Source: Ruditapes philippinarum (Eukaryota). From it: a stretch of DNA of 64,000 nt. Under the pieces are notes generated by a model that did no database searches, was not told the origin of the DNA, and worked only from the letters and a program-made list of their open reading frames with translations. The position numbers and the translations under genes are program-made. Position 1 is the first letter of the stretch. Each line of letters starts with the position of its first letter. The stretch is taken from positions 1-64,000 of the forward strand of contig NW_026861603.1 of assembly GCF_026571515.1 (NCBI RefSeq). The letters are read 5' to 3'. Shown here piece after piece: positions 5,404 through 52,806 of the stretch.

Positions 5404-5430
5404 TTGAATTTAGAAACATCCGCAGATGTG

Positions 5431-5455
5431 TTCATACGGCGGTTATCATGGAACC
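5431..5455 (-). promoter_or_regulatory. Conserved upstream motif GGTTCCATGATAACCGCCGTATGAA, candidate snRNA proximal sequence element (PSE)
   Basis: Recurs at 16326-16350 (-), 29831-29855 (+) and 45607-45630 (-), each time upstream of a family copy. It ends at -28 and -29 from the predicted +1 in the 5.3 kb and 16.3 kb copies. Confidence 0.4.
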
Positions 5456-15870: not shown

Positions 15871-16212
15871 AGGCACACACCTTAAACACTAGGCCACCGC
15901 TCCCCTTGTTTAAAGTATCCGCTTCTGTTTAAAGTATCCGATTTAAGTCGATATTATGAAACATATATTATTTTATGCAGAAATAAATATCTACCATGCA
16001 AAATTTCCGATTTCTTCATACATATTTTATAAACTATTGTATTTTAAGTAACTACCGGCAATAAATATCATAGATAAGATACCGAATGTTATTCTTCATT
16101 TGTCAGCCTCGGGTAAATTTACAGTTTGGAACAAATTCAGGATTATTGAAATAGACTATGCGAGCTTAATCTAATAACCTGATGTATGCATAATGTAAAA
16201 TGGAAAGAAAAC

Positions 16213-16297
16213 AGAACCCTTAAGAACACTCAAAACAGAAAAATGGAAAATGTTGCATGCTCAATTTGATAAACATGTTAAAGAAATTGGTGAATAT
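16213..16297 (-). pseudogene. U1-like family copy with internal deletion of the first two hairpins
   Basis: 5' arm ATATTCACC and 3' part (GAAAATGTTGCATGCTCAATTTGAT on +) are retained. About 230 bp of upstream flank (16326-16550) is homologous to 5431-5640. Confidence 0.55.
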
Positions 16298-24035: not shown

Positions 24036-24244
24036 CCGAACTAGCAGACGACAGGTGAGTTTCAAGAAAAGTTAGCCGTAACATATCTATCAGTATAAAT
24101 TTATGTAAAATGGCGTTAGGCGGTAGGTTTAACAGTTAATTAAGTACCTTTGGTGTCAAAAGGGGGAGAATAGTCCGACTACCTTAACAATTCTCGGGCT
24201 TACTGCATACAGGACTTTCAGTGCTATATAACTTTTATTAAGGA

Positions 24245-25420: not shown

Positions 25421-27350
25421 AACAAGATTGCATTTGAGAAAAATGCTATGCCACCGCATTAATACAACACTAAATAGTAGTGTAGGAACAGATTTTTTTG
25501 TTTCTATACAATTGAAGATTGTCATAATGCATAGATCCCTGACCTATCGAATTCTTATTATCAGATTAGATTAGATAAAAGATCAGAGTAGGAATATATC
25601 AATGCAATTGAGTCTAGTGAATTTGGTGGTGAAGGTCATATTTCACACAGCCTAAATTTCATGACTACATCAAAAGACAACACAGTAAGACACTTTGTCA
25701 AAATCTAGGTCAGTTGATATCAAAGTTCACTTTACATCTTAATCTGTGCACATGGTTCAAATTTCATAGCTATACATCAAAGGACAAGTAGGTCACATCA
25801 TCAAAATCTAGGTCACCTGATATCAAAGTTCATTTTACAACTAAAACTTTGCACATGGTCAAATTTCATTGCTGTACACCAAAGGACAAGAAAGTAGGTC
25901 TCTATTCCCTTGGGCAAGGCAAAATTTTGACCCAAGGGTTTAATTTAAAACAATCTTGATACAGGTCCACCAAACAACATTTCAAGTCAAATATCTAAGC
26001 TGTACCTTTCTCCCATTCAGAAAACATTTGTTTCATTTTCTGCTTTTACTATGTGTACATAATGAGAATCACTGCCCCCGGGAGGGCCAATTTTGACACC
26101 AGGAGAAAAATTTGAACAACTTTGGTAGAGGACCTATAGATGATATTATATAGCAAACATCAAAGCTCTATGCCTTGTACAAAAAAAATATATATTTTTT
26201 ACTATATGTACATAATGAAAATCAATGACCCCCGGGGCGGAACCAATTTTGATCCCAGGGCTATAATTTGACCAATCTTGGTAGAGGTTCACTTCACAAT
26301 GTTTCATGCAAAATATATTAGCTCTAGCCTTTGTAAGTTTAGAGAAGATGATTTTTTAAGTTTTTACTATATACATATAAGGAAAACCAATATTAAAGCT
26401 CTAAGCATTGTACTTTCAGACAATAAGATTTTTTGATTTTTTACTATATGTATATATTAAAAATCAATGACCCCTAGGACGGGGGCAATTTTGACCCCAA
26501 GGCTTTAATTTGAACAATCCTGCTAGAGGATAACTACACAATGTTTCATGCAAAATATCTAACCTCTAGCATTTGTCAATTGCTAGAAGAATTTTTTTTA
26601 AAGTTTTTACTATAAGTTTTTACTAAATACATATAAGGAAAACCAATGACCCCCGGGGCGGGGCCGATTTTGACTCCAGGGCTATAATTTGAACAATCTG
26701 GGTAGAGGTCTACCACACAATGCCTTATGCAAAATATCTTAGCTCTAGGCCTTTAGGGTCTTTACAAAAAGGTATTTAAAGTTTTTACAATTATATACAT
26801 ATAGTGAAAATCAATGACCCCCGGGGCAGGGGCCGATTTTGACCCTACGGCTATACTTTGAACAATCTTGGTAAGGGTCAACCAGACAATGCCTTCTACA
26901 AAATATCTTAGCTCTAGGCATTTTGGGTCTTTACAAGAAGGTATTTTTAAGTTTTTACTATATGTACATATAGTGAAAATCAATGACTATTTGGACCCCA
27001 GGGCTATGATTTGAACAATCTTGGTAGAGGTCTACCAGACAATGCCTAATGCAAAATATCTAAGCTCTAGGCCTTTTGGGTCTTTACAAGAATATTTTTT
27101 AAATTTATTCTTATAATTCCTTTTGGTTGCCATGACCACCAGATTTCTGAATGGAATGAAATTCTTTGAACAACTTTGGAAGCCCTTTACCCAAGGATCA
27201 ATCCTGCCAAGTTTGGTTGAAATTGGACTAGTGGTTTTTCACAAGAAGATTTTTTAAGTTCACAATATAATCTATATAACACACAAACACATATACACAC
27301 AGGTGAATCGCTATATGCCACCGCATCGCAGATGCTGCGGTAGCATAAAT
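25421..27350. mobile_element. HINE with internal ~167-bp tandem array
   Basis: Sub-TIR ATGCCACCGCA at about 25448; terminal palindrome ATGCCACCGCATCGCAGATGCTGCGGTAGCAT; (CA)n microsatellite; about 6 units of AATCAATGACCCCCGGGGCGGGGCC...GGTAGAGG. Confidence 0.8.
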
Positions 27351-27361
27351 ATGGATAAAGT

Positions 27362-27445
27362 TTGATTTCACGGAAGCATTTATCACAACAAAATTACATG
27401 AAAATTGCAGACTAGCTTTGATTGAGTCTGTACGTGAGGGATAAT
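27362..27445 (-). pseudogene. U1-like family, subfamily B, 3' half
   Basis: Minus strand CAGACTCAATCAAAGCTAGTCTG, then AATTTTG, then TGATAAATGCTTCCGTGAAATCA. Close match to 46148-46229. Confidence 0.55.
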
Positions 27446-27554
27446 GGTAAAAGCAGTAATGCCTATTACAATGGTCAATATTGCTTGCGAAAATGACGAA
27501 CCCTAAGATATTATTGAAATATTCGAATGCAACGTGGCAATTACAATCTGTAGA

Positions 27555-27712
27555 ACAGAAGTTCCCTTGAGGACAGTGAGACATAAAAAAGAGAAAAAAA
27601 AGCACACTTTGTTTTATTGAGTCTGTTCGATAATAAAAAAATGGAATTTGAATCTTTTCGAAAGGTTCCTGGCATCTACAGAATGTAAGCAGTACTAGAA
27701 TCCTCAACATTA
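27555..27712 (-). pseudogene. Degenerate U1-like family copy
   Basis: Plus strand GCACACTTTGTTTTATTGAGTCTGTTC...CCTGGCATC...TAAGCAGTA...TCAACATT is collinear with the family. Confidence 0.4.
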
Positions 27713-28293
27713 TTTAGCTTTGAGTTGTGGGCCAGTTTTTTTTAAATATAATTAATGATTGACTGACAGAGTCTCGTACTATTGACTGTTATCAGCAAAA
27801 TGTTCAATGTCATGTTCACTCTGGTATATTTTTACTTTTTAAACAATATTAATCTTGATTTGAGTATTTGCACAGTACATACAAATTAAACAAAACCCAC
27901 TTAGTTGAGTATCTATATAGTCAACATGTGACAGACATCACTGTCTGCGGTTTCGTAAACAAAATTACAACAACCAATATAGATCTAATTTGGTTATTTT
28001 GTGTGAAATTAATTATCATGCACTTTAGATGTACTTAAATAAAAACTCTCGTTTTTAGTATTTGAAAAGAAAAATTAAAAGCTTTCGTCATTCAAACGAT
28101 AAAAATAAATTCAAATTAAGACAAATTTAGTCTACCCTCCAAGTCATATTCCCGAAGTTTAGTTCAATACAAAATGTGATTGATATACATGTTTCCTATA
28201 CGAGGAAAATGGTATGGACTTATCATTCTGTTTAGAGCAAATAATATATAGTTCTTAAGTGTTTCACTAGCATCACTTGAGTGTATTTCATTT

Positions 28294-28406
28294 TGGATGG
28301 TTCGATTTTAACAAAGACAAAAAATACCGTTCATGAACAGACTCGTTCAAACCGAGCCTGCAACATTTTCAACTTTGTCATTTTGAGCGGTTTTTAGGGA
28401 GTTTCC
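28294..28406 (+). pseudogene. U1-like family, subfamily A, 5'-degenerate
   Basis: TACCGTTCATGAACAGACTCGTTCAAACCGAGCCTGCAACATTTTCAACTTTGTC...TTTAGGGA; the Sm-like site is mutated to AACTTTG. Confidence 0.55.
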
Positions 28407-28553
28407 TTTTCAATTTTTATATAACTTTATGACAGGGCGCGGAGTAAATTTGTTAAAAGGATTCTGACTAGAATTATTTAAGTCCCAGCAAGATAACAGT
28501 TGTGTACTTTAAAACAGTCGATGTTATCAAAAATAGTGAAATAGAGACAAACA

Positions 28554-28714
28554 GGATCCCTAAAGAAAGTCCAACACGATAAAATTGAAAATGTTGAGGG
28601 TCGGTTTGGTTGAGCCTGTTGAAGGACGGTAATGGTAATTGCAAGCTACCGTCCACGCCCTCTAGCACCGGCTTCAGCAGAATTCAACATTTAACATGAA
28701 AAATAAGTAAGTCA
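28554..28714 (-). ncRNA. U1-like structured snRNA candidate, subfamily A, full length
   Basis: Minus strand: TGACTTACTT 5' arm (ACTTAC equals U1 nt 3-8); AGGGCGTGG (U1 has AGGGCGAGG); GGACGGTAG-CTTGCAATTACCA-TTACCGTCC; AGGCTC-AACCAAACC-GACCCT; AATTTTA; GGACTTTCTTTAGGGATCC. The upstream motif is not seen. Confidence 0.55.
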
Positions 28715-28735
28715 CGTGCAATATTCAAAGATTTT

Positions 28736-28892
28736 TTTCTGATAGAAGCTTCTGATAATTGTATGAAAGCTGTATTTTCTGAAAGTAGCTTCTGATAATT
28801 GTATGAAAGCTGTATTTTCTGATAGTAGCTTCTGATTATAGTATTAAAGCTGTATTTTCTGATAGTAACGTAGCTTCTGATAATTGTATGAA
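28736..28892. repeat. 40-bp tandem repeat, about 3.7 copies
   Basis: AGCTTCTGATAATTGTATGAAAGCTGTATTTTCTGATAGT repeated. Confidence 0.9.
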
Positions 28893-29874
28893 ATTTACAG
28901 ATTTTATACTAAACAACTTAACTAGTTGCAAATGATTTGTTTTTATTTAAATACATAATATTTCCCTCAATATCGAATGAGTGAGTATACATATAACTGA
29001 AATTCTTCTCAAAAACTGGATATTTTAAATGCTGATTTTGAACCATACATCTTTGTGTAGAATAATTATTTATAAAACACGTTTAATGATTTTGTTTACA
29101 ATTTTTATTTCTCATTTAATGATTTTGACAAACATACATATAACTAGTATTACAAATACATAACAAGGACCACTACTTATCAATAAACACCTTTTGGTGA
29201 TACATGCAGTCCTTTGTATGCATGTCGATAACTAAATAACTAATGGTAATACTTAAAGATTAAAAATATGTTATAAAAAAATCGCAAAAAAATAATAATA
29301 ATAAATAAATAAATAATGATCATGGAGTATACAAAATTCTTTTAAAATTTTATAACAATGTATAACTTAATTATATTTGTGTCTATTTATCGTCAAATTG
29401 CGTTGTTGAATTAGGACATTAACTCAGTGTCGTTCCTAGACTATAGTATTACATTACTTCGCAAAACCACATTTCAAAAGAATACTGAAACACATTTACA
29501 AAAAAAAACGGACTTTTATCAGCTATGTGTGATTTTTGCTAACAATATTTGCACGCATTTACCCTCTTGCAAATACATGTTTCTGAATGGCCTAGATAGA
29601 AACGACCCAGCTCAGCAAGGTCTTCTTGTAATGCTTGTTGTTTTTACTTTTTTTTTCATTTTTTTTCTTCGGGTGATTCCTACTTTAATATTGTATTATC
29701 AAACACCCTTGGTATATTGTGATCCGTGATGCTCATTATTCCATTTTGTTAATCCGCGACAGTGCTAAATTTTTTTGGTTGGGGAACAAACTGATCTTTT
29801 CATGGAAGGGTATAAAAGTGTCACACTGAACATTCTATTATGACCGCCGTATGAACCATCTATGTTAATAATAG

Positions 29875-29955
29875 TTGATCACCAGTTTCATGTTTGAATG
29901 TTGAGCATGCTAGGGCCCGTGACAGTACCTCCAGTTTCCAATTCAATCCATGGAT
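29875..29955 (+). pseudogene. U1-like family 5' fragment with upstream motif
   Basis: ATGACCGCCGTATGAACCATCT...TTGATCACCAGTTTCATGTTTGAATGTTGAG...TGCTAGGGCCCGTG is homologous to the 5' region of the 5.3 kb copy. Confidence 0.5.
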
Positions 29956-30042
29956 CTTTACTGTCTCTGTTAATTAAAAAAAAATGTCACAAAACAACAA
30001 TTTTTGCCAAAGTCACGTGTAAGGCCACGTGAACATGGAAAA

Positions 30043-30625
30043 ACTTTTACCTCATATAGACGTGTTTTTACGATTTTTTTCTACCCCCCCCCTCCTTTTG
30101 AAGCCTAAAATAGTGCAAAAAAGAACAAAATGCGCTATTTAGGCATCAAATACTGTTTTTCGTTCGAGAAATGTTGTTAAAAAAGTGATAATTTTTTCGC
30201 CACCGCCCTTATCAAAAAGGTACATGAAGGGGGTGCCAGAGGGGGATGTGCCCTCTTCTTTTTAGGGGTTTGAAGGGGGCGATAGCCCCCCTCATCACGA
30301 AGAAAATTTTGGTCATGTGACAGGCTAAAATGGCATCAGGTCATTAAATTAACTTGTAACCAACGATTGAAAGCCTTTTACTCTATTTCAATCCTTTGAG
30401 AAGTGGTAGCACTTTGCAAAATAGTGATTTTGGGCAATTTCGAGACGTTCCCCCGTAGCCATGGTAACATAAAATTTAAGATTAAGCATGCTGTTACAAA
30501 GGCAATGGTCCAGTCAACATTTGTCTTAAGTTTCATCAGTATTGCAGTATTTTTCATAGTTTCATAGCAGTTTGACTTTGTAACAGGAGGTTTTTCAATG
30601 AAAACGGCCATTTTGCACAATATGT
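30043..30625 (+). mobile_element. Non-autonomous DNA element, inverted homolog of 40210-40823
   Basis: Collinear reverse-complement similarity, e.g. CCATGGTAACATAAAATTTAAGATT vs AATCTTAAATTTTCTGTTACCATGG. Confidence 0.75.
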
Positions 30626-31800
30626 TCATTGGGTAAAAGATTATCTCTTGCAAATGAGAAACAATAAATATAGGTGAAATCTATGCATGAATTCGTATTC
30701 AATTTTATAGCAAACCATGCTTTTATATTAATTATTCTCTTTGTTTTTTGAACAATTGGTATTTTACCAACAAACCAATCATCCAAACTACCAACAACAA
30801 CAATAACAAAATATAACAACAAAATAACAATAATTAAAGATAAACCGATGTTTTAAAGTTAATTTGTTATGTGAAGTATTTTAGCTTTGGTTGCTACTGT
30901 GAAAAAATTAAGTGCGTGTTTTTCGTATAAATTTTAAAATGAAAGTATTCGATCTGTTTTTTTTGCCATCTCTTTTACTTCGAAAAATGAAGATATTTTC
31001 AAAAAATGTAGTCTCCAAAAGAAAAAAAAATCAAATGCAGTATGTACTTGTTTTCTGATACGGTAAACTAACGTTATTTAAACATTTATAAAGGAAAATT
31101 GTTATTCTAATTACATCTTTACGTTGTATTCTTTACAAAGTACATAATGTTTCTGAAAGCTTACACAATTTAAGAAATAACAGTAGCGTTTCAATAAGAC
31201 ATCATTATGCAGTAGTTATCCCCGGCAATATTTGTAATGTTACGTGACTTTCTCATTAATTCTATACATTTGTACAATAGTATGCAATCGTCATTCCGTA
31301 AAAAAATTAGATGTGCCCTTGGGAGCAACAAAATTTGTTTTTTCTCTTTGGAGTAGAACACTTAAGAGTAATTGAAAGATTTGATTATAGTGATTGACAT
31401 TTAATTATATTTAGGTTTATTGAACGTCACATAAAAACACAATTGAGGTCCATTAAATGGAAGTGATCATTGTGTTGTGTTAGTCTGCTTTCATGGATGC
31501 TCTGTATTTTCAGTATTTAAATGCTATGAAGGGATGTCAAATATTAAATAAAAATATTGTTTTGTGACACTTCATTTTTTACGTTTAGTTTCGTTTATAT
31601 TTAAGAAGACCGGAAAAAATGTTAAAATCAAATCAAAATGTAATCAAAGCAAACAAATAACTTGTTTATAGTTTTATCATTGCAACAATTTATATCTACA
31701 TTGTGATATTTTGTGACAGAGGCAATATTTCTGTGATCTATAATTTGTTTTTATGTAATTCATAATTAGTAGATTATGTTGTGAAGAAACAGAAAAATAC

Positions 31801-31935
31801 GGAATCCCTAAAGAACACCAAGAACGGCAAACTTTGAACTGTAAATGGGTCGGTTTGATTGCATCTGGTCATGGAAATTGCAATGTACCGCCCATGACCC
31901 TAGCACAGGTTTAAGTGGAATTTTACATTTGACTA
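31801..31935 (-). pseudogene. U1-like family, subfamily A, degenerate
   Basis: Plus strand GGAATCCCTAAAGAAC...TCGGTTTGATTG...CATGGAAATTGCAATGTACCGCCCATGACCCTAGCACAGGTTTAAG. The loop reads ATTGCAAT on the minus strand. Confidence 0.55.
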
Positions 31936-33437
31936 ATGATGCTACATATATAATACTGAGAAACGTTGTCTTGAATACCAATCAGATTCATGTGCTCTAC
32001 TTGCTTTTATTTCTTGATAGTCCGATGCCTTTTCTGTGCATGTGTTATGAAAAATCCTTCTTCTTAAATTTCAGAAAAAACAAGCTTTTTATTAACACTG
32101 TCATTAAGCATGCGTGTTACTGGCATCAAGTGTATTTTTTTTGGACGAAGTCCGTCTCAGAGCACTTTGAATTCCTATATAATATAGAGGGAAGAACTGA
32201 ATATAGATAGGATTTCTATTGGTGTTTCTAAAATTACAAACAAAAATCAGGGAATCTCATTGGCTTATCTAAAAATAGTAAAATAATATAGAGGATCTTA
32301 AACGTACACACGTCTAATTTCTTAAAAGGAGTGTCAGAAACAAACTGTCTGGTTAAATTTCTCGGATATTTGAGACCTGTGAACGGCGTTTCATCCCATT
32401 TAACAACAGCTTACAATGGTTTCATAATTTATTGATTCTCTAATAAAAAACATTCTTAACATTAAAATAAACTGTGATTAATTGGCATTTTATATGTTTT
32501 GTGTAAAATAACGAGACCACCAAAAGCACTCACGATCCTTGAAACTTAAGTTCATGAAAATATGTAAAGGCACAACATTAAAATATCCGAACTCATCTGA
32601 TACTCTCACTAGATAATGTTGCATGTTCACGATATAATACATGTATGATTATTGATGTGTTCAATTGATTTGAATCGCATTATTTTTATACATGTATATT
32701 TGCATATTAATGAAGCACATATTCATTTGTACCTGAAAGCGCCATTGTAAAGAACATTACCGGAACAAGCAGTTTCGTTTAGAAACATATCTTACACGGA
32801 TGAGCTCAGATAAGGGTAGGAATCACTACCAAAGCTTTGTCAAAACACTGGCTACAAATTGACTATCACTGATTTGTTATAATTATCATATTGTTGATTT
32901 TTACTGCATTTTGGTGGTAAAAACCTGATATGACACGATGAAAAGTATAGTATGTTTACTGTATAATTCTGGAAATTTCGATAGTGCAACTTTTTTTTAC
33001 TATTCTTCAAAAGAAATGCAAAAAAAGCCAAAAAAGCAGATAAAAATAATATTAAGATTTCTGGAAATATAAAGGTCCTATGAAATAAATACTTTTTACC
33101 AAATTTAAATCGGGCAAAAAATGTGGCCAAAAATGTAAAGCATGATATAAATGTATTTATCGTTATTTTTTGCCATATTTGGACCATTTTAAATAAGACA
33201 TGATGAATTGTACTTAAAACAAGACAAACATGTACATTACCAAGAGTTAACTACAAAACAGACATTTAACTGTGAACAAATTATCAGTAGTTTTGTCAAA
33301 AGTTTGGTTCATTTAATTTCCCCAAACCCAAAGTGGAGTGGTTCTTTTGGTATGGTCCGTATACCAACTTTCAACATGATGTTACAATTGCCTTTCATAT
33401 CAAATGAATATTTCATTATCAATTACAGACAACAACA

Positions 33438-34692
33438 TGTTTGTTTGATTTTACGCCTTTTCCCAACAGTATTTCAGTCATATAGGCGGGTAGTTTCCTA
33501 ACCATCGTTCCTTGAGAGTTACACCAGCAGTGCGTTCAGTACCCATTTTACGTTAGCCAATCACCGTTACTGTTACGAAACGGTTCATCGAACGAACTGT
33601 TTTGGCGCTAACGTTTAAAGATGGCGGACAGGAGAATAATATCAGCGATTTTGTTAGAAGAATTGGCAGAAGATGACTTCTTTACGCAATTTAATTCTTA
33701 TCAAACATTGGCAATGGATGTCATGAATTTTTCTCTAAGTATGTATGTTCAAATTTCATGTAATTGTTGTTTATTTGCTGTTAAAATCACATCTTTTCGC
33801 CCGAATTACAACGCCGGTTCAAGACCGGGAAGTCTCGTCGTATTTTTAGATTTCCCATAGTGATAATGAACATATGTAATTTGTTTATAGTGGCGTTGAG
33901 GTAATAAACTGTGGCGTTGAGATAATAAACTATTATTTTATCTATATTAATTAATTCGGAAAATTTTGACGCCTTGAAAAAATCAACGTTTCCCTCAGTC
34001 ATTGCATATGTTTTTTTCCGATCTCAAAACATTGTATATGTAAGTAGTCTTTCGGACTATGCTCCCTATATTTTATGCGAGACAAAACAGAATTTCACTA
34101 GACTGGGGCTTGGGCTTTGCCTATTTTTCGTCAAATATTTCAATTGTGAATAAAATCAATTGGCAATTTGTAGCCAAAGTTCTACGGTATCATAGTCATG
34201 TTTTGAAATTATAGGTCATGTTGGTGTCAATGTACAATATACATCAATACATCTAATCACAGTTTCTATATAAACTGTTTAAATAGCCAAGGTAAAATGA
34301 GTGAAAACACACGAGCTGTTTACCTTTTCTTCGAGTAAAATCGTAATTTGTAATGCTAAAAGATGCAAATTTTTCTATATTTAAACTGCAAGTTAATTGT
34401 GATTTATTGTTCAATTTACCTTCCTCCGTGCTAAACTACCAAAGCATCTCCCGGGGATCGAACCCAAACCAGAGAGGTAACTAGATTAGAAGTAATCGAC
34501 TCTAAACCCTTGACCACGGAGGCGGTCCAAGACATAGGCGGGTAGTTTCCTAACCATCGTTCCTGGAGAGTTAAACCAGTACTAGAATACCTTCCTCCGT
34601 GCTAAACTACCAAAGCATCTCCCGGGGATCGAACCCACGCCAGAGGTAACTGGATTAGAAGTCATCGACTCTAACCCCTCGACCACGGAGGC
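33438..34692 (-). mobile_element. tRNA-derived SINE with duplicated head, interrupted by a ~0.9-kb insertion (33528-34414)
   Basis: Two heads GCCTCCGTGGTC...GGGTTCGATCCCCGGG (34415-34523 and 34585-34692). TAGGCGGGTAGTTTCCTAACCATCGTTCC is shared at 33483 and 34535. (CAAA)n tail at about 33440. Confidence 0.75.
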
Positions 34693-36395
34693 GTTCCAAG
34701 ACAACATGATTATACAACATGTGCAGAAGACATGGGGAATATATTCTCCGAAAAACTTTTTCCGTAGACCGTTTACCCATTATATTAGAACCTTTAAAAC
34801 CTATTTAATCACTCTTTTAAAACAAACTCTTCACTGAATTTGATGATACTTTACTAAAACTTAAAGTTGAAAATCATATTTTATACCGTTTCAAGTCAAT
34901 CTGAATCTATGTGTTATAATTAAGACTATAAATACTAAAAGGTTCACTTAATATTAACAAAAAAGTAAGTTATCAAGATCTGAATTAAAGAGATGGTACC
35001 GTCAAAAATCAAGACAATATTGAATACGCAAAGGAAACAGATAGTCGGAGAAAGCGACTAAAGCGCTCACGACAAAGGGCAGAAATAAAGAGTGGAAACA
35101 AACAGCTTCACAAATATGAAAACGACAAACAAACAAAAACATGTCCAGATACAGAATGAGCTTAAAGTCAAAGAAAACAAGTGAAATTCGCCACAACTGA
35201 AAGAAGATAGAAAAAACAAATAATATATATCAAGAGACACAAAGCTGCGCATAACACTCAGAAATTTAAAAAATGAGAATTCAGCTCAAGTCAGTTGATC
35301 AAACAAGTACTAACAATACATTTCCTAACACCATTGTACAGAATTATATGGGAAAAACTGGAGATATTTGCGGACGCGTGTATGTTAAAGCATGCATATA
35401 AGAAAAGTCTAAAATCTTGTTATAATTATGACATCAAGGGGCTGTCCACTTTCTCTGATATCTTTAAGAAATATTGCAAGAGAAACCATTGTCAATCGTT
35501 GTGGTGATAAACGTATTGGTCCCAGTAAAGGCCCATAAGAAAGATTGGTGTTAAGCTTTTCTGAAAACCATCTTGAGCTTAGACTAAGAGTTGCCCATCC
35601 CCTTGAACATTCCAGAGCAATTATATCTGATGTGGTCGATGAATACTGTCACTTGTTACAGAAGTGTCTTGATGAAGGCCATCTTACGTTTGAAATTGCA
35701 CGCATTTAGAATTGTAGACTTGTGGAGAGTTAGGCAATTTAAGTCGAATACATTTAATACAATATAATACTAATTAATGAAGCATGTATATCAGTCTTTA
35801 TTCATTTATCTTGGCGTGTAACATTACAAATTGCAATATCTGCTGGTGGACATCAGCATAGGATAACTGAAAAGGGAGTTATTGTTTTGCAGTTGTTTGA
35901 AGGATATTTTGTTATAAGCACAGGACGTTGTTTACTTACACATATCAAAACAGCGAGTGCTTTCCTTGTAACAAGGATATCTTGTTGAGAGATAGAGAAT
36001 ACTGCTTCCAGCATTTAAGCAGATAAATGGTGCCACTGTAGCTGCAGCCTTCAACTGTACTCGTTCAATATATATGAAAGCTGTAAAAGCGCTGTTGCCT
36101 GTCACAAGCAATAGAACAACTTATCAGCAGTCCACCATCATCAACGGACGTTGCTTTCATATAAGTTGAACCACCAAACGTGCCACTTACAAACACGTAC
36201 GTCTGGTGGAGAACAATAAGATCGTTGTTATGCACAGTACAGTCCAAGAACCTGAAAAAGCATCTAAAGAGTAAATTAAATGTTACGCTGATATCTGTAT
36301 TGTCTGCGAGGTTGGTCATACAGAAGGTAGGGTGTGTGACATTTGCCATAAATGGTATAATCGGGATTGTTTGCCAAACTGTATTTAAACAGAGA

Positions 36396-36442
36396 TACAG
36401 ACTCAATCAAACCAAAGTCTGCAAATGCTTCCGAGGGATCAC
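36396..36442 (+). pseudogene. U1-like family, subfamily B fragment with the Sm-like site deleted
   Basis: CAGACTCAATCAAACCAAAGTCTGCAAATGCTTCCGAGGGATCAC, plus the downstream CCAGATTTTTAA shared with the 46.2 kb copy. Confidence 0.55.
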
Positions 36443-36786
36443 TTTGTTTCCAGATTTTTAATAACCATAACAGTAATCCAGTGGCTGTGCAATTTTTTTC
36501 TAATGTAAAACGTATGGAAGTATGTTAATCATTTATAGTTTAATAGTTTTTTCCAAGTACATTCACTGTTACTATGTGTTATCGAAGTTACAAAAACATT
36601 TAAAGTTACATGCTGATAAAATTATATTATATCATTATTGGTGAATTATGTTGTCCTTTTCATACAATTGGTTTTGATGTTTACCTGTTCCGAGTGATCA
36701 CACTTTGTCCGGATCATTCAGTGGCAGTTGTCATTAAATACTGAAATGAATGTTTAGCTAATAATGGACTTTTTGTTATATAAAAC

Positions 36787-37299
36787 AACAAAAGCTGTCG
36801 GCAGGACAGCTAGCTCGACTATTTTTAGTGCTTGATAGTAAAAGAACCTTTATAATGTAAAATTTTCTACTATAACAAAGGGTGTAAACTTAAATGTAAA
36901 TTCTAATAAAAAAGTGCATTACTCTGTCAAATTGCCTGATAGAGTTACCTCCTCTTGTCTACAGATTGAGGCTATGATGGTGAACAAGTGTGCAAAGTTT
37001 CAAAGCCATATGTCAATGGACTTTGAAAATAATTAAGGTGGTACACAAACTTTAACATAAATTCTAAGTCAAAAAGGGGCATAATTCTATCAAAATGTTT
37101 GATAGAGATACCTTATTCTGTTTACTGGTTGGGGTCATGATGGTGAACAAAGCCATATGTCAATGGACTTTGAAAACATTTCAGGTGCTACAGAAACTTT
37201 AACATAAGTGCTTACGTCGATGCCGACAGAGAGGCCGACGCCGACGTTCGAATGACTAGGATAGCTCTACTTATTCTTATCGAATAGTCGAGCTAAAAA
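36787..37299. mobile_element. HINE
   Basis: Palindrome AGCTGTCGGCAGGACAGCT, sub-TIR GCTCGACTATT / AATAGTCGAGCTAAAAA, two internal repeat units, GACGCC microsatellite. Confidence 0.75.
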
Positions 37300-39318
37300 G
37301 GCACCAGTCCACCTTACAATATTTAAAACTGTATTTTCTTAACGGCATTAGATACCACTAGATCACGGACACCATTCACTAATTAAATAGATTGTTGTCC
37401 ATCTTGTTTTGCAAGAGTATAGATAATAGAAAATAGATAAATCAATGAATTCCCCATGCCATATTAGTTTTTTAACAAACATTGCTGGGCCGTGTATGGG
37501 TTGCTTTCATTGAACGCCGCCTTTCCTGGTTTGTCTTGTTTATCATGTTTTAAGGCATGTGAATTGACATATTATGAAGGATTGAACGCCGCTTTTCTAT
37601 GTTGGCCTTGTTAATCGTATTTCATCATGTCATATTATAAAAAAGCAAGATCAACAAGGAAGGGTGGCATTCAATGAACGGACCCCCAACACAGGACCAC
37701 TAGCATGGAACCCAGTAGGACACCAATAAGGACAGGGCACACATGCACACCTCGGTCGAAATGTCTCTAGGCAGACAAATAGTCAAACAAGTGTTTAATT
37801 TGGTTTAGTAGAGTAACATTTGTTAACTAAGTGTTAACCAATAATCAATAGGAATACACTTTTTATAAGGATGATCAAATAGATTATTTGAAACATGAAA
37901 AACAAAAATTAAAAAAAAACTAAAACTAGAGACACAAGGGAAGATATTATCGTAGGCGAGAAGGGACACGAAAATAGTATAAAATAACAAACAAGACATA
38001 CCTCTAAGGAACACAAATTGGCACCGCCTTGGAACGGTCAGCAGCCTTAGCACTGCTGGGAAGTTTAAACCGGTTAAAATCGATTTACAAATGTATCGTT
38101 ATGGAGATGTTTATTAATGGCAAGGACCATTCGACGAGTGTAAAATACATGCTTGATCAAAAATGAATTGGAGAGTGGGATTTGGAATTAAAAAAAGAAA
38201 TAAAAAGAACCTCTTCCCCAAGCCATTTTAAAATAATAATAAAAAATATGTATTGTCAAAAAAAAATTAAATGTGCTTATAGTTAGATATCGCAGATCCT
38301 CAATGAATTAGATTAATATATGCAATAACTTGTGAAGAAAAATAAAGTCGTTTATCAAAAGGAATGAGTAGTAAATTAAAAGAGAAAAAAAAAGATTCAC
38401 TTCAGATGTTGCCAAGATAGTTGTCTCACAGTGACTCTCAAGAATATTGCTACAGCTCTAACTGATGTGAAACCTTGACAAATTTCTGTCAATGACACTA
38501 TTACATACATATACTTTGGAGAAATGTTTGATAAATTTCTTTTCCATATTAAGAACAGAGCAAAGAGTAACAGCAGGGCTTTAGCAAAGAAAAATTTGAC
38601 TACAAAGAACACAGATACATAAAAAGTGTAAGATGAACATAATAAGATCATTGACACAGTCAATGTATGAAATTCACATTTATTTCGGTGAGGGAATTAA
38701 GATTACTTAATTAAATGCCTCGTAAACGGTGATTTTACAAGTACGGGAAAATGAAAACAATTTAAGTAGCAAGAAAACGTAAAATGGTTTGAAGTAATAT
38801 GATTTATGATATCTAAATACATTTTTATTATTACTTTCTTTCATTTTGCTTCTAAATGAATATAGTGAGTATCTTTTTTACTTTTGTACCCCTCTTAGCT
38901 GTTCTTTTTAGCACCATTTTAAGTTTAACATTATTGTCAAAATTCATTTGTTTTTTTGGTTAAAATATTTTGTAACATCCGATGTACAAGTATTTAGATT
39001 GAAACAATTTACAGAAACAAGTGTTACGTTAAAAAAGACAAGAACAAAGATCAACAAGGCAAAGGCAACGTTCACAGGACGTAGTAAGAAACAGTACACT
39101 TTTCACTAGAGTTTATAATGATTACATGCGAACAGGATTAAATAATATTCTTATCGCCCATGTGAACAGAGTGACAAGCTTTAGAATGACGAAATTTTAG
39201 TGAATTTTAGGAATTAAATGCGTGATTTTGATGACTTCACTCCGTTGGTTCTGAATGGTTTATAGGTTATACTATTGATCAATTGAAAAATATAAAAATA
39301 AATGAAATAGAGAAAACA

Positions 39319-39525
39319 GAATCCATAAAGATAGTCCAACATGGCAAAATTTAAAATTTGCAGGCTCGGTTTGGGCTTTCCTTAGGGATTATTATTTTTC
39401 TTTTTTGATTGAGCCTTTTTATGGACTGTAGTCGTATTCATGGACGGTAGTGGTTATTGCAAGCTACCGTCCATGCCCCCATAGAACCGGTTTTTAGCTG
39501 AATTCAATATTACAGTTTTATATGA
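39319..39525 (-). pseudogene. U1-like family, subfamily A, with internal inverted insertion and short duplication
   Basis: Perfect 12-bp stem CATGGACGGTAG/CTACCGTCCATG. The loop of the CAAA hairpin is interrupted by an inverted 3'-end segment at about 39373-39404. Confidence 0.6.
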
Positions 39526-40209
39526 AGTTGACAGTTAACGTTGCTATATCATTAAATAAAATATTGATGAGACGTTTCTTTATGATGTCAGTAAACAATA
39601 ATATTTTTTTTATCAAAGATGCCTATATTTATCAATTCTATTTGACACGTAAGAAAGAACATAAGAACAGCTGCATAGTCAATTTAGACATGCAGTCCGT
39701 AAACGATGTTTATTGACATATTTACTCCCGGTTATTTTCTTGTTGGTTTAAAGTGACAGAATCACGAGTCATATTAGAATATTCTTATTCATTCAATGAT
39801 GTACTGAAGTTAACCAAAAAAGGTTTCTCAGATTAATAAAAAGGAAGGTTTCCCATTAAAAAATTGTTTTGAATTCAGGACGTCAATTATCAATATACGA
39901 CTATTTTCAGATACATATTTTATACGTACTTTGTTATAAACTCCTGCTGTCTATATCATAATGTAGATTCGGGATAAAATCATTTAATCCATGTTTATTG
40001 TAGAAATCACTTATTTGATATACACGCTTGTCCATTTGCCTTATCACAAAGTTATACGATGTTCCTCTGGGGACATCATAAAATGTCAAAAATTACTATG
40101 TTTCTCTTTGAACCTGACGATTTCAAGTTATTAACATGATCTGAGTTCAATGCCTGATGTTTAGTTACATTTGCCTGTCTAAAATAATGCAAATCAGAAA
40201 CCTTATAAG

Positions 40210-40823
40210 TTAACCTTTTATTTTGAAAAATGGCCGTTATCATTGAAAAGCCTCCTATTAAGTTCCAACAACTATAAAACTATGAAAAATACTTCAATAC
40301 TGATGAAACTTGGCACATATGTTGACTGAACCATAACCTCTGTAACAACATGTGCAATCTTAAATTTTCTGTTACCATGGCAACGGGGGGACGTCTCAAA
40401 ATTGCGAAAAATCACTATTTTGCATTGCTTTTTTCATCAAAATGATTTCAAAGTCATGCAACTTCTTAATGCAATGAGATAGAGTAAAAGGGTTTTCAGC
40501 GTTGGTTAAACGTCACCTGTAGTATGACTTGAGGCCATTTTTTACCTGTCACATGTCTAAAATTTTCTTGGCGATGAGGGGGACTACCGCCCCCTTCAAA
40601 CTCCCAAACAGAAGGGGGCACATCCCCCTTCTAGCAACCCCCTGATGTATCATTTTGATGGGGGGCCGCGCCGAAAAAGTGGTCACTTTTTTTTAACAAC
40701 ATTTCTCAAACGAAAAAACGTGTTTTGGGGCCTAAATAGGGCATTTTTTCACTGTTTGAGGCCTCAAAGGGGGGGGGGGGACAAAAGGTCGTCAAAACAC
40801 AGCTATATATGGGAAAAGGTTAA
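40210..40823 (-). mobile_element. TTAA-flanked piggyBac-like non-autonomous element
   Basis: TTAACCTTTT...AAAAGGTTAA ends; second copy at 30043-30625. Confidence 0.7.
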
Positions 40824-42313
40824 ACTGAATTAAAGTAAATACCTCATCAAATGTTTCAAACCAAACTAAAAGCTATCAAATAACGTGAGAAAATGTTTAT
40901 ATTGAAAGTACGTCACAAATTATCTCCCTAAACCCTCCCTACACACTGATTTCCCTGCTTATATAACATACTCCGATAAAAGGCCTCTTCCCAATTGAAA
41001 TTTTCTTTGAAATTATAAATTATGCAGTTTTCCAAAGAAACTGAACTTAAACCTGCTTTTTACTTCCCAAAGCAGCAATTTTAACGAAAACTTTTCCCAA
41101 AATCAAGTGGCTAAGGCCTCTTTCCAATTAAATGAGAAAAATCACTGTTACATTTCCGTAACTACCAATGACGTGACGTCAAGATTTACACATCTTGCTA
41201 AAATCATTTTTATTATAGAAAATGCTATATATAAACAACGATGAACCGTATAGAAGAAACTTGTTTATTTATTAATATTAACTAATATATTTACTTAAAC
41301 TTCTTTTTTTGAAGACAAAAAACGTTTTTACATAACGATTTGGTATTGATAAAAAGTAATTAACAAAAAATATTGTTTTAATAAGGTGTCATTTCAGGAC
41401 TTGGTCTTGATTAAGTGTCAAAACTAATAGAAACTTGTGGACTGAAGAACAAGTAAATCAAATCATGAGTACACAATGCCGAGTTAATAACTGATTGTAA
41501 GGCCACTGGGAAATAGATAAAGTTTATGAAAGACGTACACCATTTAAATATAGGAAAACACCATTTATTGTCGCTATGTAGCTTCCATTTAGTATAACAA
41601 AAAGCTTGCTAATTGCAATTGTTCATGTAAAAGTTGAACAACAGACATACAAGACAAATATGATAACACTAAGACGAAGTATGACTGAACTTGCCTATGA
41701 AAGTGTCGTTAATGCTAGAATCAAAGAAACTATCTTTAAAATTTCCTATCAAATTGTTTATGGTTTGAGTTTGGTATCTTATAGTAAAGGTGTTAGATTT
41801 CTTTGTTTCATCTTTCCATATCTATTGATATTGATCATATGGAAAATCTGCTTCCAGAATGTAATTGTTTGGTCGACTGTGTGTTGATATATATTTAACG
41901 TTCATATGTCCTTCAAGATTAGCGCAAAACAAGAATCAAACGATTAAAGGAAAACGCATTTTATTTTTTAATGATTTTTTACACATTGGAAACTTCATTC
42001 AAACATTAGTGATATCTTTTCTGATTAAAAGAAGAATAACGAATTGAACATTCATCAAGTCATATGGGTTAAATGTCATTTGAGTTCATTGATGTTCATT
42101 GGAGACTCATCCAATAAATATTTAGTGAAGATACTTTTATGGTATTCTGCAATTAATATGTATAAAATCAGAACGCAAAAGTAGTATCCTTAATTCATGC
42201 TATATAGCCTCAGAATGTTAATTATTATTGATTTGTCTTCCATTGTGAACATTGACAATATAAATATTGAATTAAAAGAACACACAGAAAAGATTATTAA
42301 AATCTTGAAAAAA

Positions 42314-42465
42314 GTATCGCATCGGAGGCTCTGAAAATAACAAAAATACATGAAATTAGAGACAGAGTTTGATTGAGTTTGTTCATTAGAGAGAATGGAA
42401 AAACGCAACATCCCTATGCCCTCTAGCACCGACTTAAACGGTATGCAAACTTCAACACTTAATGT
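42314..42465 (-). pseudogene. U1-like family copy intermediate between subfamilies A and B
   Basis: Has the A-type GCCCTCTAGCACCGACTTAA and the B-type GCAACATCCCT and ACATGAAATT (plus-strand reading). Confidence 0.5.
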
Positions 42466-44118
42466 TGTATTATATAACTTTCCTACATTGTAGTTAGAAA
42501 AAGAGTGTTTTATTGATTGCATATAATACAGCATATAAAAAATAAAACACGTCTCTAGAAATGTATATTGGCTGTCAAATGATTGAAATATTTTACTACT
42601 AAATTTTATCTTTCAAATGACTGAAAACATTTATCATGATAAGGATATAGTATGGACTCAAATTATTAAAAAACACGTCAACATTTCAAAATTTATGTCC
42701 TTTGGTGAATAGTTGTCGTAAATAGCCCCAAGAGTTGCAGAACTTAATAAAGGTGATATAGATAAGACATATTTTATGACTTTTTTATTTTTCTATAGTA
42801 AAAACAAATTTATACCATTATGTATGCCGTAACATACCATTTCTTTCACATTTCTTAAATGTTAAAATTGTAGTCTTAAATCGAAGTATAGTTAACGGGG
42901 TAGAAATGACTTATGACGAGGCAGAAAATTCTGAATGCCCCAGTGATATAGATAAGAAGATATGTTTATTTATTTACCAATTTCGGAAAATAACAGGCCA
43001 GGACCATTAGCAGCACACCTGAAAAGAATTCACGTTACAAACAATCTCGAATTCTAGCCAAGTAGTTTTGCCTAAAGAATTTAATTGTAAGTAAAATCTC
43101 TTAAAATTTGTATAATTGGACATTTGACTCGGTTGCTATACGTTAATTTTGACAGTGTTCATACGGGTAGCCATTTCCATATCAGCTATTTATTTTGCGT
43201 AATGATTTTCAGGATTGATGATAGGCATGCTTTTTAAATAAAAGAGGCAAATCTACTTAAAACCCTTTTGATAATTGGAAACAACACGATTTTATTGCTT
43301 TATAAATTGCACAAAATATAAATTCCACTAAGATGCATAAACTTTATAGCATTTTGTGGATTTTTATAAATTTAATAGAAGAATATCGCAGACACTTAAT
43401 GAAAAAAGAATATATCATCATCTGATATTGATTTAGTCGTATATAAGTAGAAAAGAAGACTTACTAGTAACCAAAGAATGCAATGAAATTAAACAACAGG
43501 TAAAAGTACATTCTCTAGGATAATTCATTCATATGGAACACTGTAGCAGATGACGTTAAAATGGTGCAACTTTTGCTTAATCTCTAAATAAAATACCTAG
43601 TCTGCTATTTGCAACTATTTATTTTTTATTTTCATTGCCCTCGATAGATAATCCTTTAAAGCTAATTTGTATTAATTAACGTTTCTTTTTATATACGACA
43701 TAATTCATTGGTAATATTTCTTATTTTAATCAATCAGATTGTTCATTTCACGCACATATTAACACTAATTAATTAATAATAATTTTACCTTTTTCCAGTT
43801 GTTATGAATTTTCGTCTCTTAAGTAAATTATTGTAGTTTTATCTCTGAAATTGAAGCGTAATGATGGATTGTAAGAGATAATTGACAAAATATAAAATAT
43901 GTGATTTACTATTTTATTTTGAGTAATTGTTTTAATTGTTGCTACATCTATCAGATATTTTCATTAATCTTGAAAACTATGTAATCTACATGAAATACAT
44001 ATGCCGTGATGATGTCAAGGGCGGGAAAGTACATTGTGATGTCAGACTCGTCATTGTAAAGTTTTGCCACTAACAATTTGTCTCATACGGCAATATATAG
44101 TTGTCGTCATTTTTACAC

Positions 44119-45458
44119 AAACCAGAAATGTGTCAATAGGACACTCCACTGTTTTGTCAATCTTATGACTCTAGGTCAAATATTTTTTGGGCTACATGTG
44201 CCACAAATTGAAAACTAAAAATAAAAATTTTACTAAGTAAAGGGCAAGAACTTTACAAATACTGAATAAATTCACAAACGAACCCAAGCTGCATAAGTAC
44301 ACATGTTGAACAGCATTCTTATGAACGTTCAGGCCAACAGGTCAAATACTTTTTGAGCAATGCATGAACAAGTTGAAAATTGCAAATTTATACTAAGTCA
44401 AGGGCAATAACTCTAACAAAACTAAAAAATCCACATGCAAAATCCCAGATGCATAGCTTCACAGTGATGTGATCATTATACCTGGTTGATTCTAACTCAA
44501 TCACTCAAGGAACAAATAACACAACATAATGAAACAGTTTTATAAGTCAAGGGAAATAACTGGATAAATCCACAAACGAAACCTAAGGTGCACAACTACA
44601 TTTGCTGACCAACATTCCTGTTAAGTTTCATGACGCTAGGTTAAATTCATTTGGAGCTACTTACGGCAAAAATTGAAAATTGCAAATTTTCACTATGTCA
44701 AGGGTAATAACTCTGACAATACATATAGATTCACAAGTGAAACAACAGGTGCACATTTTCACATGCTAATCAACATTCCTGTAATGTTTCATGACCATAT
44801 GTCAAATACTTTTTGAGCTACGTGTGACACAAGTTGAAAATTGCATTTAATTACTAAGTCAAGGGCAATAACTCTACAAATACTAAATAAATCCACACGA
44901 AAATACCCAGGTGCACAACTACACATGCTGATCAACATTCCTGTAAAACATGACCATGTCAAATACTTTTTGAGCTATGTGCGACACAAGTTGAAAATTA
45001 CAAATTTTTACTAAGTCAAGGGAAATAACCCTGACAAAACAGAATAAATCCACAAGCGAAACCCCAGGTGCACAACTTCACATGCTGATCAACATTTCTG
45101 TAAAGTTTCATGACACTAGGTCAAAAAAATCTAACAAAACAGAATAAAATCCACAAACGAAACCCCTTGTGCACAACTTCTATGCTAAGCAACATTTCTG
45201 TAGGGTTTCATGACACTAGGCCAAACACTTTTTGGGTTACGTGCGACACAAGTTGAAAATGCAAATTATTACTAAGTCGAGGACAATCACTCTACAAATA
45301 CTAAATAAATCCACACGACAATACCCAGGTGCACAGCTACAAATGCTGATCAACATTCCAGTAAAACGTGACTATGTCAAATACTTTTTGGGCTATGTGC
45401 GACACAAAATGAGAACGGACGGACGGAAGCACGTCCGGACGGACAATGGTAAATCTAA
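44119..45458. mobile_element. HINE with internal ~157-bp tandem array
   Basis: About 8 units of ACTAAGTCAAGGGCAATAACTCT...AGGTGCACAACT...; terminal (ACGG)n microsatellite. Confidence 0.8.
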
Positions 45459-45475
45459 ACTAGAGAAAAAACACC

Positions 45476-45595
45476 AGACCCTTAAAAAAGCTTAAAATTA
45501 CTTCAGGTTCGGTTTGATTGAGCGTTTTTATGGATGGTTGAAGCTACCGTCCATCCTCTTCTTTCACTATTTTAAGTAGTATTTTGAACATTGCA
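45476..45595 (-). pseudogene. U1-like family, subfamily A, degenerate
   Basis: CAGGTTCGGTTTGATTGAGCG...ATGGATGGTTGAAGCTACCGTCCAT; upstream motif at 45607-45630. Confidence 0.55.
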
Positions 45596-46079
45596 ATTTA
45601 AAAATATCATACGGCGTTGATCATGGAACCTTGAATGTGTGTGCCCTAAACGTCTTTATATATTATTCATTTTGGAAATATAGAAGTACACGTTTCCCAA
45701 CTAACAATGAAATAAAGTCAATGCTACTGAAATAGTAAAATAGAACAAAATGGATAGAATGTTCTTGTCGAGACAGAATAACGTTTTACTTGGCACTAGC
45801 CGACGTTAAGTACATGTATACAAGATCTGGAAAAGAAAATTTCTTCGAGACAAATGAAAAGAAAGGTATTATATAATTTTGCAGACTCTATTTAATCAGA
45901 CAAGGAATTTGTCCGAGACGGACATCATAGAGAGCGACGGAAACAGCAACAAATATAATTTGTAGACTTAGATTTTTAAAGTTCACAACAGTAGGTGTCA
46001 ACAGCTGTGTGGCAGCTGTAAAGTCGCCCCGTATTTCACTTCAGTGTAGTTATATATTTCTGGTGCTTCTGGATCATTG

Positions 46080-46229
46080 ATTCCAACACTTTTACGTGTT
46101 GAACATTGAGTACCGCTCAAGCCGTTAGGGATGTTGCACTTTTTCATATCCCTCATGTACAGACTCAATCAAATCGAGTCTGCAATTTTTATGTTATTTT
46201 GTTGTGATTAATGCTTCCGAGGAATCACA
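46080..46229 (+). ncRNA. U1-like structured snRNA candidate, subfamily B, near full length
   Basis: TTGAG-TACCG-CTCAA; AGGGATG-TTGCACTTTTT-CATATCCCT; CAGACTC-AATCAAATC-GAGTCTG; U-rich AATTTTTA and TATTTTG; 3' stem TGTGATT...AATCACA enclosing GCTTCCG. Confidence 0.55.
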
Positions 46230-46762
46230 CTTTATCCAGATTTTTAACATCATAGACAATTTCAAACGGCAATTCATAAAAGATCAACAGCTTACACTTG
46301 CAAGGTGTTATAATACAAGTTCATTGTTCCACAAATTAAAATACGTCTTAAGAACAATGGCATATGCAAAAAATGTAACGTTTTATAGGGTTTTATTTCT
46401 AAGGTTAAATTTGATCATGTTGAAACGTAAAAAGTTTGTTGGCATTTATATCTTTATAGATAACATGAAGAAAAGTTCAGCAACAAACTAAAGAAAGCCA
46501 TTAACAAAAATTTAGAAGTACACATAAATTAATTTAGATCAAACTTAAGAAAAAATATAGATAGAAATTTATAAAAACGTTAAAAGACTCGCGCCTAGAA
46601 CGCACCCCTTCTTTTAAATGTCTTAAATACTCTAATTACTACAATGTTCCACGGTCTTAAGATGAAAAGGTTTAGTTGGACATAGCAAATTATATTGTTT
46701 CATGGAGACACATCGATGACACACTTATGCAAAGATGGGTTATTTAAGATAACAAACTTCCT

Positions 46763-46820
46763 ATCAAACCGAGCCTGCAACATTTTCAATTTTGTCGTGT
46801 TGGGCTTTCTTTAGGGATTC
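46763..46820 (+). pseudogene. U1-like family, subfamily A, 3' fragment
   Basis: ATCAAACCGAGCCTGCAACATTTTCAATTTTGTCGTGTTGGGCTTTCTTTAGGGATTC is nearly identical to the reverse complement of 5244-5301. Confidence 0.6.
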
Positions 46821-46945
46821 TTGTTTTCTCTATTCCATACTTAACTTCTGTTGTACTTCGACATCATATTTAGTTGTTTTTAAAAAATACTTCTTGTCGA
46901 ATTTTTCTTGTGATTTAAGTTGTACCAAATTATGAAAGAATACAT

Positions 46946-52684: not shown

Positions 52685-52806
52685 GAATCACTAAAAAAGC
52701 CCAAAACGACAAAATCGAAGATGTTGCAAGCTCGGTTTGATTGAGCCTGTTTATGGACGTTACTGAAAGTGCAAATAACCTAGCAACCCGATAAACTTCA
52801 CATTAA
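52685..52806 (-). pseudogene. U1-like family, subfamily A, with deletion in the 5' half
   Basis: Minus strand GTTATTTGCACTTTCAGTAACGTCCAT; AGGCTC-AATCAAACC-GAGCTT; GATTTTGTCG. Confidence 0.55.

Follow-up and report, generated by a model that had tools for sequence, protein, structure and literature searches.

Probable Naiad-dependent tandem repeats of Ruditapes philippinarum with two predicted RNA folds, one of them enclosing a candidate twister-sister-like core

The first 64,000 nucleotides of contig NW_026861603.1 of Ruditapes philippinarum, referred to here as the window, harbor two families of repeats, A and B, in which hairpins keep their shape while their sequences differ, and this raises the question of what kind of element such repeats are and whether their RNA folds carry out a function. 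A and B are selfish retroelements and not host RNA genes. The explanation favored here, to which a probability of roughly 0.6 is assigned, is that they are tandem repeats copied by a Naiad, a type of Penelope-like element (PLE), and that they keep two predicted folds, of which one would act as a start signal for the reverse transcriptase (RT) and the other would contain a dimeric self-cleaving core. That A and B depend on Naiads is very probable. They represent a major, previously unlabelled repeat of the R. philippinarum genome that is now classified, and the families may already be catalogued in Repbase, Dfam, or Naiad consensus files. The window, part of a 1.41-Gb assembly, has a GC content of about 30% and is rich in repeats, and its open reading frames (ORFs) are retroelement-like fragments only. 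Rfam returned nothing at gathering threshold across the window, and nothing relevant for A/B arrays at E values of up to 10.

Two repeat families and their autonomous partner

The units measure 630 bp in A and 283 bp in B, and A corresponds approximately to B with an additional 345 nt in mid-unit. The repeat reaches well past the 150 nt described in an earlier note on this DNA. Both families are non-coding and dispersed and often form short head-to-tail arrays of up to 5.1 units; 58 of 126 B copies and 28 of 157 A copies are longer than one unit. A profile of the region shared by A and B has 17 matches in the window, and conserved flanks were not found outside the units. In A, B, and Naiad alike the 5' ends are scattered, and the 3' end is U-rich and always at one fixed point. 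Within -10 to +12 of the unit junction lie 93/172 Naiad 3' ends, 114/164 of A, and 96/126 of B (the A and B counts being inflated, as many loci were seeded by queries that reach the 3' end), compared with uniform expectations of 0.9, 6.0, and 10.2, respectively; the 5' ends in the same interval amount to 0/164, 3/163, and 10/125. Inverted pieces and chimeras are frequent at A/B and Naiad loci, and A/B copies show 5' truncation, partial tandems, inverted 5' pieces, and the fixed 3' end that characterize Naiad partners. These insertion signatures are the ones that Craig et al. describe for Naiads (PMC8557442), and they are likewise compatible with non-autonomous partners of PLEs, retrozymes among them (10.64898/2026.07.22.740005; PMC7229834). 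The genomic A/B copies decay without compensation. A partial B-like element was also found in a contig of another host (L267).

The likely helper is a Naiad-type PLE with a unit of 4,255 bp and at least 150 close RT copies in the genome. It has an N-terminal GIY-YIG domain upstream of the RT, a KR block, a DKA motif, and the RT motifs, and the hallmarks given for Naiads are a GIY-YIG domain upstream of the RT, a KR block, a DKA motif, and a length of 3.4-4.4 kb (PMC8557442); pieces of the helper had no match in Pfam. Naiads are described as devoid of canonical hammerheads and as dominant in bivalve genomes (PMC8557442). Two observations tie A and B to the helper. First, they have in common with it a leader of about 87 nt, with an identity of 88.5% over 87 nt for A and of 78-83% for B. 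Second, 15 of 31 Naiad fragments adjoin A/B sequence, compared with an expectation of 3.6 and a maximum of 9 in 2,000 within-locus permutations; this test covered the 99 non-overlapping loci among 121 A/B-seeded loci, 17 of which contain Naiad DNA. In addition, the middle of A resembles the 3' untranslated region (UTR) of the Naiad at L209 (66% over 127 nt, E value of 1e-5). This genome yielded no L209-like Naiad that could be the direct parent of A, and the idea that the inner A/B motif is an inverted piece of a Naiad 3' UTR was not supported.

Several further features of these Naiads were recorded. At L039, L045, and L058, arrays of B are inserted into the coding sequence of Naiad and share its orientation. 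A second Naiad family of this genome (L195, L198, and L201) has a different 3' UTR and a nearly identical leader. The ORF of the helper (L108, L115, L118, L119, L120, and L123) contains four in-frame TGA codons common to the copies, and a selenocysteine insertion sequence (SECIS)-like element follows the ORF at L119:4094-4155 and also in L204, with an E value of 0.009 that is below the Rfam cut-off; in-frame TGA codons and a SECIS-like element are as described for clam selenoprotein Naiads. A second conserved motif of the Naiad 3' UTR contains short palindromes (L227:4555-4618 and a matching block in most Naiad loci); one part of it has 2,392 exact matches in the genome. The motif has a weak match to twister-P1 (E value of 0.37) and may be another ribozyme variant. 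Finally, Naiad-like RTs, some in tandem, were encountered in contigs deposited under bacterial genomes or metagenome-assembled genomes (L282-L310), which is probably due to host contamination.

Two predicted folds

The first fold spans the border between neighboring units. The 3' end of one unit is predicted to pair with an arm just downstream of the leader hairpin of the next unit, and this helix encloses the junction and the hairpin. Such a fold is possible only in read-through tandem or circular RNA. In the near-complete A unit of the window (5228..5841, minus strand; 87% identity over positions 7-630 of the L010 tandem unit), the leader common to the autonomous Naiad, a long hairpin with approximate boundaries, is found at 5755..5841 (minus; 83% identity to Naiad unit positions 7-89), and the 3' arm at 5228..5286 (minus) closes the four-way junction discussed below, pairs with the next unit's leader, and carries the fixed U-rich end. 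The pairing is common to A, B, and Naiad 3' ends, although these cannot be aligned by sequence, and the same leader is present in Naiads of other hosts (metagenome contigs, mostly with 53-69% RT identity). The long junction helix escaped RNAalifold, since its arms are unalignable by sequence, and a comparison of own with swapped arms was used in its place. For 14 elements of this and other hosts, own pairs averaged -43.8 kcal/mol versus -26.1 +/- 7.1 kcal/mol for swapped pairs, a difference reached in none of 100,000 permutations; L209, L231, L245, and L267 were excluded, the junction being absent or too short or, in L231 and L245, folded differently. In all 14 junction helices pairing is better for the coding-sense strand than for its reverse, each helix having 4-12 G-U pairs, and the consensus of the leader hairpin comprises 20 pairs, 7 of them with double changes among 13 elements. 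The junction itself had no match in Rfam at the junction loci analyzed.

A natural reduction of this region was found at L156 (G000:C226:92800-95200), namely, a mini-Naiad of 244 bp that is present in about five tandem copies ending at the junction. It is composed of the last 91 and the first 153 nt of Naiad, i.e., of the junction region alone. On the basis of these data, the junction fold is probably the site bound by the Naiad protein and the signal at which reverse transcription starts. The junction helix is likened here to the template-enclosing helix of telomerase RNA, a parallel that we assume. Reverse transcription of a PLE from Anolis has an internal start on the RNA, downstream RNA is needed, and nicking takes place at ATT first (PMC11167929).

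The second fold lies in the 3' region of the units, and the CAAA and UUGCA hairpins on which the earlier note was based are arms of a predicted four-way junction. In the A unit, the UUGCA-loop hairpin is at 5312..5348 (minus) and the CAAA-loop hairpin, in its G-C form and with one mismatch in this copy, is at 5287..5309 (minus). The near-complete B unit at 45982..46246 (plus; 86% identity over positions 4-283) has a deletion of about 13 nt that takes the second core strand; its first core strand and broken linker are found at 46115..46125 (plus), and the two hairpins occupy 46127..46182 (plus), with the UUGCA hairpin at about 46127-46156 and the CAAA hairpin, in its A-U form, at 46160-46182. 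The B stretch that had been named for probing, 46080-46229 (plus), is thus a copy that is devoid of half of the conserved core.

The double change from G-C in A to A-U in B that had been noticed in the CAAA stem is real, and the usual loop of B equals that of A. The string quoted for B is exact at 46160-46182, whereas the copies at 27.4 and 36.4 kb have mutated stems or loops and keep the A-U pair. This hairpin has 20,688 exact matches in the genome (control, 0), and a hand tally of the 100 matches listed gave 56 G-C, 34 A-U, 4 G-U, 5 A-C, and 1 G-G; the difference between A and B is therefore one inherited event, and the one-sided decay of the stem inside the families looks neutral. The UUGCA hairpin was likewise confirmed, but the statement that its stem differs entirely between the families went too far: the outer 4 bp are common and the inner stem has several double changes, and the common part is hidden by the deletion of about 13 nt in the 46.1-kb B copy. 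The third pair of stems, which had been taken as homologous local hairpins at the 3' end, found no support, and the perfect B stem requires a variant that 8 of 107 B copies carry. The arm in question is, in A as in B, one strand of the junction helix and is predicted to pair with the following unit's leader.

With a profile of the A/B 3' region, this module was also detected in a distant Naiad, L244/L241 (about 45% RT identity, endonuclease upstream of the RT, DKA motif); it follows immediately upon the stop codon there, and the CAAA stem has two new double changes and the middle stem is different. Over 27 pairs, 88% of 229 cells can pair, compared with 76% after shuffling and 25-43% after sliding, and 11 of the 27 pairs have changed on both sides, in an alignment of 9 rows from three lineages and with a structure drawn from the same sequences. 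The claim of selection on RNA structure thus has more support than the window by itself would give it, as a third lineage adds new double changes to these helices, with the reservation that one of the three stems was misassigned.

Conservation in the module is highest in two short strands with 6 nt between them. In the A unit, this twister-sister-like core (5353..5369, minus), identified by residue comparison, comprises a 6-nt strand, a 6-nt self-complementary linker, and a 5-nt strand, and the same comparison places a predicted cut between 5366 and 5365 (minus); twister sister is characterized by Mg-dependent self-cleavage at the N62-A63 step. All 11 residues of the catalytic loop of the twister-sister-like LINE-1 ribozyme (numbering of PMC11620745) are equal in the B core. 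Of the residues of four-way twister sister, A, B, and L244 have retained G5, C6, A8, G9, G59, C60, U61, and A63 without exception; the departures are A7U and C62U, two changes reported to be tolerated in twister sister (PMC5660989). At position 64, A and B share an A with the LINE-1 ribozyme, and L244 has a U. A short helix P2, with one mismatch in B, leads into the four-way junction, as in twister sister, and the 9-nt loop at the position of stem-loop SL4 keeps two adjacent A residues, the neighboring hairpin having a UGCA-like loop. The 6-nt linker differs between A/B and L244, is self-complementary in both, and is present in one form in 114 of 139 A/B copies. A strict core pattern had 2 matches in 374,765 bases of other-host loci and none in each of 20 shuffles.

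With 6 nt between the strands, a stable intramolecular P1 helix is not formed and the full helix is available in a dimer only. Since the core is split by a self-complementary linker of this length, any cut would take place as a dimer, and unconstrained homodimer folds of A and of L244 gave the swapped double core with the short helix slipped by one base. The pattern scan for a hammerhead core was negative on both strands of the A/B units. Resemblances to signal recognition particle RNA and to the pistol, hairpin, and hepatitis delta virus (HDV) ribozymes, which had no Rfam support, were dropped; the leader pattern was absent from viral contigs, and a first scan of genome contigs did not reveal a confirmed relative.

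The two folds can be combined into a possible life cycle, in which the Naiad enzyme would copy A and B in trans. Its protein probably binds the junction fold, makes a nick in AT-rich DNA, and begins cDNA synthesis at the enclosed U-run, from which it would copy upstream; every insertion would therefore end at the junction and might span several units. It is conceivable, at somewhat less than even odds, that neighboring units pair through the 6-nt linker to form two catalytic loops of the twister-sister type, by which multimers would be cut to monomers that could circularize, a role ascribed to dimeric hammerheads in retrozymes.

Counter-evidence and alternative explanations

A number of results weigh against this explanation. 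For the junction fold, the own pair ranks first in just 7 of 14 rows, although never worse than third, and four pairs of elements in the set are close relatives. The 3' ends did not form a second cluster between +30 and +40, which would correspond to the 30-40 bp tail of PLEs; this tail is described as optional for Naiads (PMC8557442). As for the four-way module, in addition to the alignment from three lineages mentioned above and the structure drawn from it, the helper Naiad is devoid of it, and a covariance model run on 99 loci returned nothing new except one decayed match with an E value of 3.5; apart from that match, those among 98 other-host loci are limited to L244 and L241, one family, both of which belong to the training set. 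Twister sister has an SL4 loop with a conserved G29-C37 pair, G31, A33, and G35, and the guanines G29, G31, and G35 have no counterpart in the hairpin at that position. B has a G-A mismatch in the short helix beside the core, and the energy model favors another fold of B, with a difference of about 9.5 kcal/mol per dimer; the same holds when two units are placed in cis. The energy gain upon dimerization is unspecific, as shuffled, non-self-complementary linkers gain equally, and it was dropped as evidence for a ribozyme after this control. Copies do not pile up with their 5' ends at the predicted cut (4 versus 2.8 expected for A, 6 versus 4.9 for B). The evidence at the RNA level consists of one genuine raw RNA run, X24, the contigs of X15 showing presence only. 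X24 contained about 85-fold fewer reads than a DNA-like library and 3 reads across unit junctions; strand bias and piles of starts or ends were not found in it, in a library type that may miss circles, and there was no sign of an abundant discrete A/B RNA. X22 and X23 were used only as a DNA yardstick; both are labelled RNA-Seq and behave like Hi-C DNA, with joints and loose ends at GATC and no strand bias. Given the SL4 loop, the B fold, and the missing footprint of a cut, the core is best described as one that works like a twister sister, if active, and not as a member of that class.

A and B can be regarded as hammerhead-less, retrozyme-like parasites of Naiad with a candidate new ribozyme variant. 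A bolder version, in which they are retrozymes of a new type, namely Naiad-dependent RNA circles that are processed by a natural, circularly permuted, dimer-only ribozyme of the twister-sister class, and in which the junction fold conserved across Naiads encloses the template as in telomerase RNA, is put forward tentatively. It is unlikely, and yet the most serious alternative, that A and B are Naiad-dependent elements with a non-catalytic module that serves in protein binding, stability, or export, the twister-sister match being a coincidence or a dead relic. The unmatched SL4, the alternative B fold, and the lack of a cut footprint in copy ends and RNA reads are compatible with this, as are the inactivity of many LINE-1 ribozyme homologues and the report that hammerhead cleavage is dispensable in vitro for another PLE (PMC11167929). 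Under that alternative, however, one would have to explain why A, B, and a Naiad of about 45% RT identity have retained the residues of the catalytic loop in spite of changed stems and linkers, and why the departures at positions 7 and 62 are the ones reported to be tolerated.

The complementarity could be a by-product of retrotransposition, through snap-back or template switching, or act in single-stranded cDNA instead of RNA; inverted pieces and chimeras are indeed common and the CAAA-stem difference between A and B is a single event, but this is very improbable considering that the helices are bulged and rich in G-U pairs with one strand favored in 14/14 cases, that the same helix position recurs in unrelated sequences of several hosts, and that double changes affect 7 of 20 pairs of the leader hairpin. 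Head-to-tail satellites with a fixed end are common in bivalves, and A and B could be ordinary satellite DNA or Helitron/Helentron rolling-circle elements with hairpins that act in DNA, for which the head-to-tail arrays with a fixed end and the 160-bp arrays nearby in the window would speak. This has only a slight chance of being correct and is largely refuted by the common leader; the arrays are short, dispersed, and 5'-truncated, carry the Naiad leader and the junction fold, are fused to Naiad, and are devoid of conserved flanks. The nearby arrays (25924-27140 and 44137-45415) consist of degenerate repeats of about 160-170 bp that are unrelated to A/B and possibly, as we presume, Helentron-type internal repeats. 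Least probable of all is a host non-coding RNA gene family, or co-option for a host function, since a stable conserved fold and the presence of A/B sequences in RNA assemblies are set against the lack of Rfam matches, the decay of copies without compensation, and a low and unstranded RNA signal. The selection proposed in the earlier note acted on the active master copies of a mobile element, and the genomic copies decay.

The window contains further copies. Members of B are a 5'-truncated copy without the core (27347..27446, minus), a short, internally deleted 3' fragment (36396..36460, plus), and an old and decayed copy (42299..42468, minus; 75% identity). Those of A are an internally deleted copy (16197..16563, minus), a 5'-truncated copy (28539..28701, minus) accompanied by an inverted fragment (28325-28417, plus), an old copy (31787..31964, minus; 69% identity), a rearranged copy that carries the UUGCA stem quoted in the earlier note (39305..39511, minus), a decayed copy (45492..45639, minus), and two 3' fragments (46751..46834, plus, and 52670..52780, minus). 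Fragments of the Naiad 3' end and 3' UTR cluster on both strands at 37482..38077 (4 BLAST matches to the Naiad unit). The window also contains coding fragments of non-LTR (long terminal repeat) retrotransposons at 58190-59182 (minus), 24242-24850 (plus), and 60247-60615 (minus), two of them with zf-RVT matches, and long inverted repeat pairs that resemble the ends of DNA transposons (30148-30622/40219-40725, 14234-14364/15719-15870, and 18468-18767/47014-47158).

Comparison with known systems

In the literature on retrozymes, Naiads, the PLE mechanism, twister sister, and clam satellites, with subscription papers and bioRxiv supplements outside the scope, neither module was found to be described. 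The retroelement ribozymes that have been reviewed are hammerhead, HDV-like, and twister ones together with weakly conserved human twister-sister-like ones; the four-way module is a candidate for a twister-sister-class ribozyme that is conserved in animal retroelements. The junction fold of about 200 nt is a candidate cis-signal for a telomerase-related RT. If it encloses the template as in telomerase RNA, this would explain why PLEs need pseudo-LTRs and a fixed end site.

The closest parallel is provided by the animal non-LTR retrozymes, which likewise consist of non-coding tandem units of a few hundred bp, range from monomers to multimers, have a terminal sequence in common with PLEs, and have been reported in mussel (PMC7229834; 10.64898/2026.07.22.740005). 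A and B differ from them in that a type I hammerhead was not found, in their Naiad partner, and in their twister-sister-like candidate ribozyme. The non-autonomous elements of Chlamys, such as MRC1, are head-to-tail partners of PLEs with an N-terminal endonuclease, a group of PLEs that is reportedly devoid of canonical hammerheads; these Chlamys elements generally resemble their helper at the 3' end (PMC8557442), whereas A and B have the 5' leader in common with theirs and only the pairing at the 3' end.

As far as the core is concerned, four-way twister sister and A/B have in common the catalytic internal-loop residues, a 3-bp helix that opens on a four-way junction, and, in the fourth arm, a loop of 9 nt in which A residues are adjacent (PMC5660989). 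The A/B core differs in being circularly permuted, in having a P1 that is a 6-nt self-complementary linker, in the absence of the SL4 guanines, and in being unmatched in Rfam. The two core strands of B equal the loop of the twister-sister-like LINE-1 ribozyme in the same order; the ribozymes of LINE-1 and of OR4K15 carry a complete stem-loop between the two strands, are without a junction, and show poor conservation (PMC11620745), whereas the A/B core is conserved across lineages and cannot close the stem alone. This last feature recalls the minimal dimeric hammerheads of PLEs, in which a short palindrome is all that is left of a helix, so that two copies in tandem are required, and activity in vitro is reported to be low (PMC4209133); A and B would use the same dimer device with a different catalytic core. 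With regard to the junction fold, the Poseidon PLE of Anolis also has an internal cDNA start, requires downstream RNA, and nicks AT-rich DNA first, but it starts at an AC-rich stem-loop with two sites that give rise to the tail (PMC11167929), whereas A and B are predicted to start at one U-rich site enclosed by a long helix.

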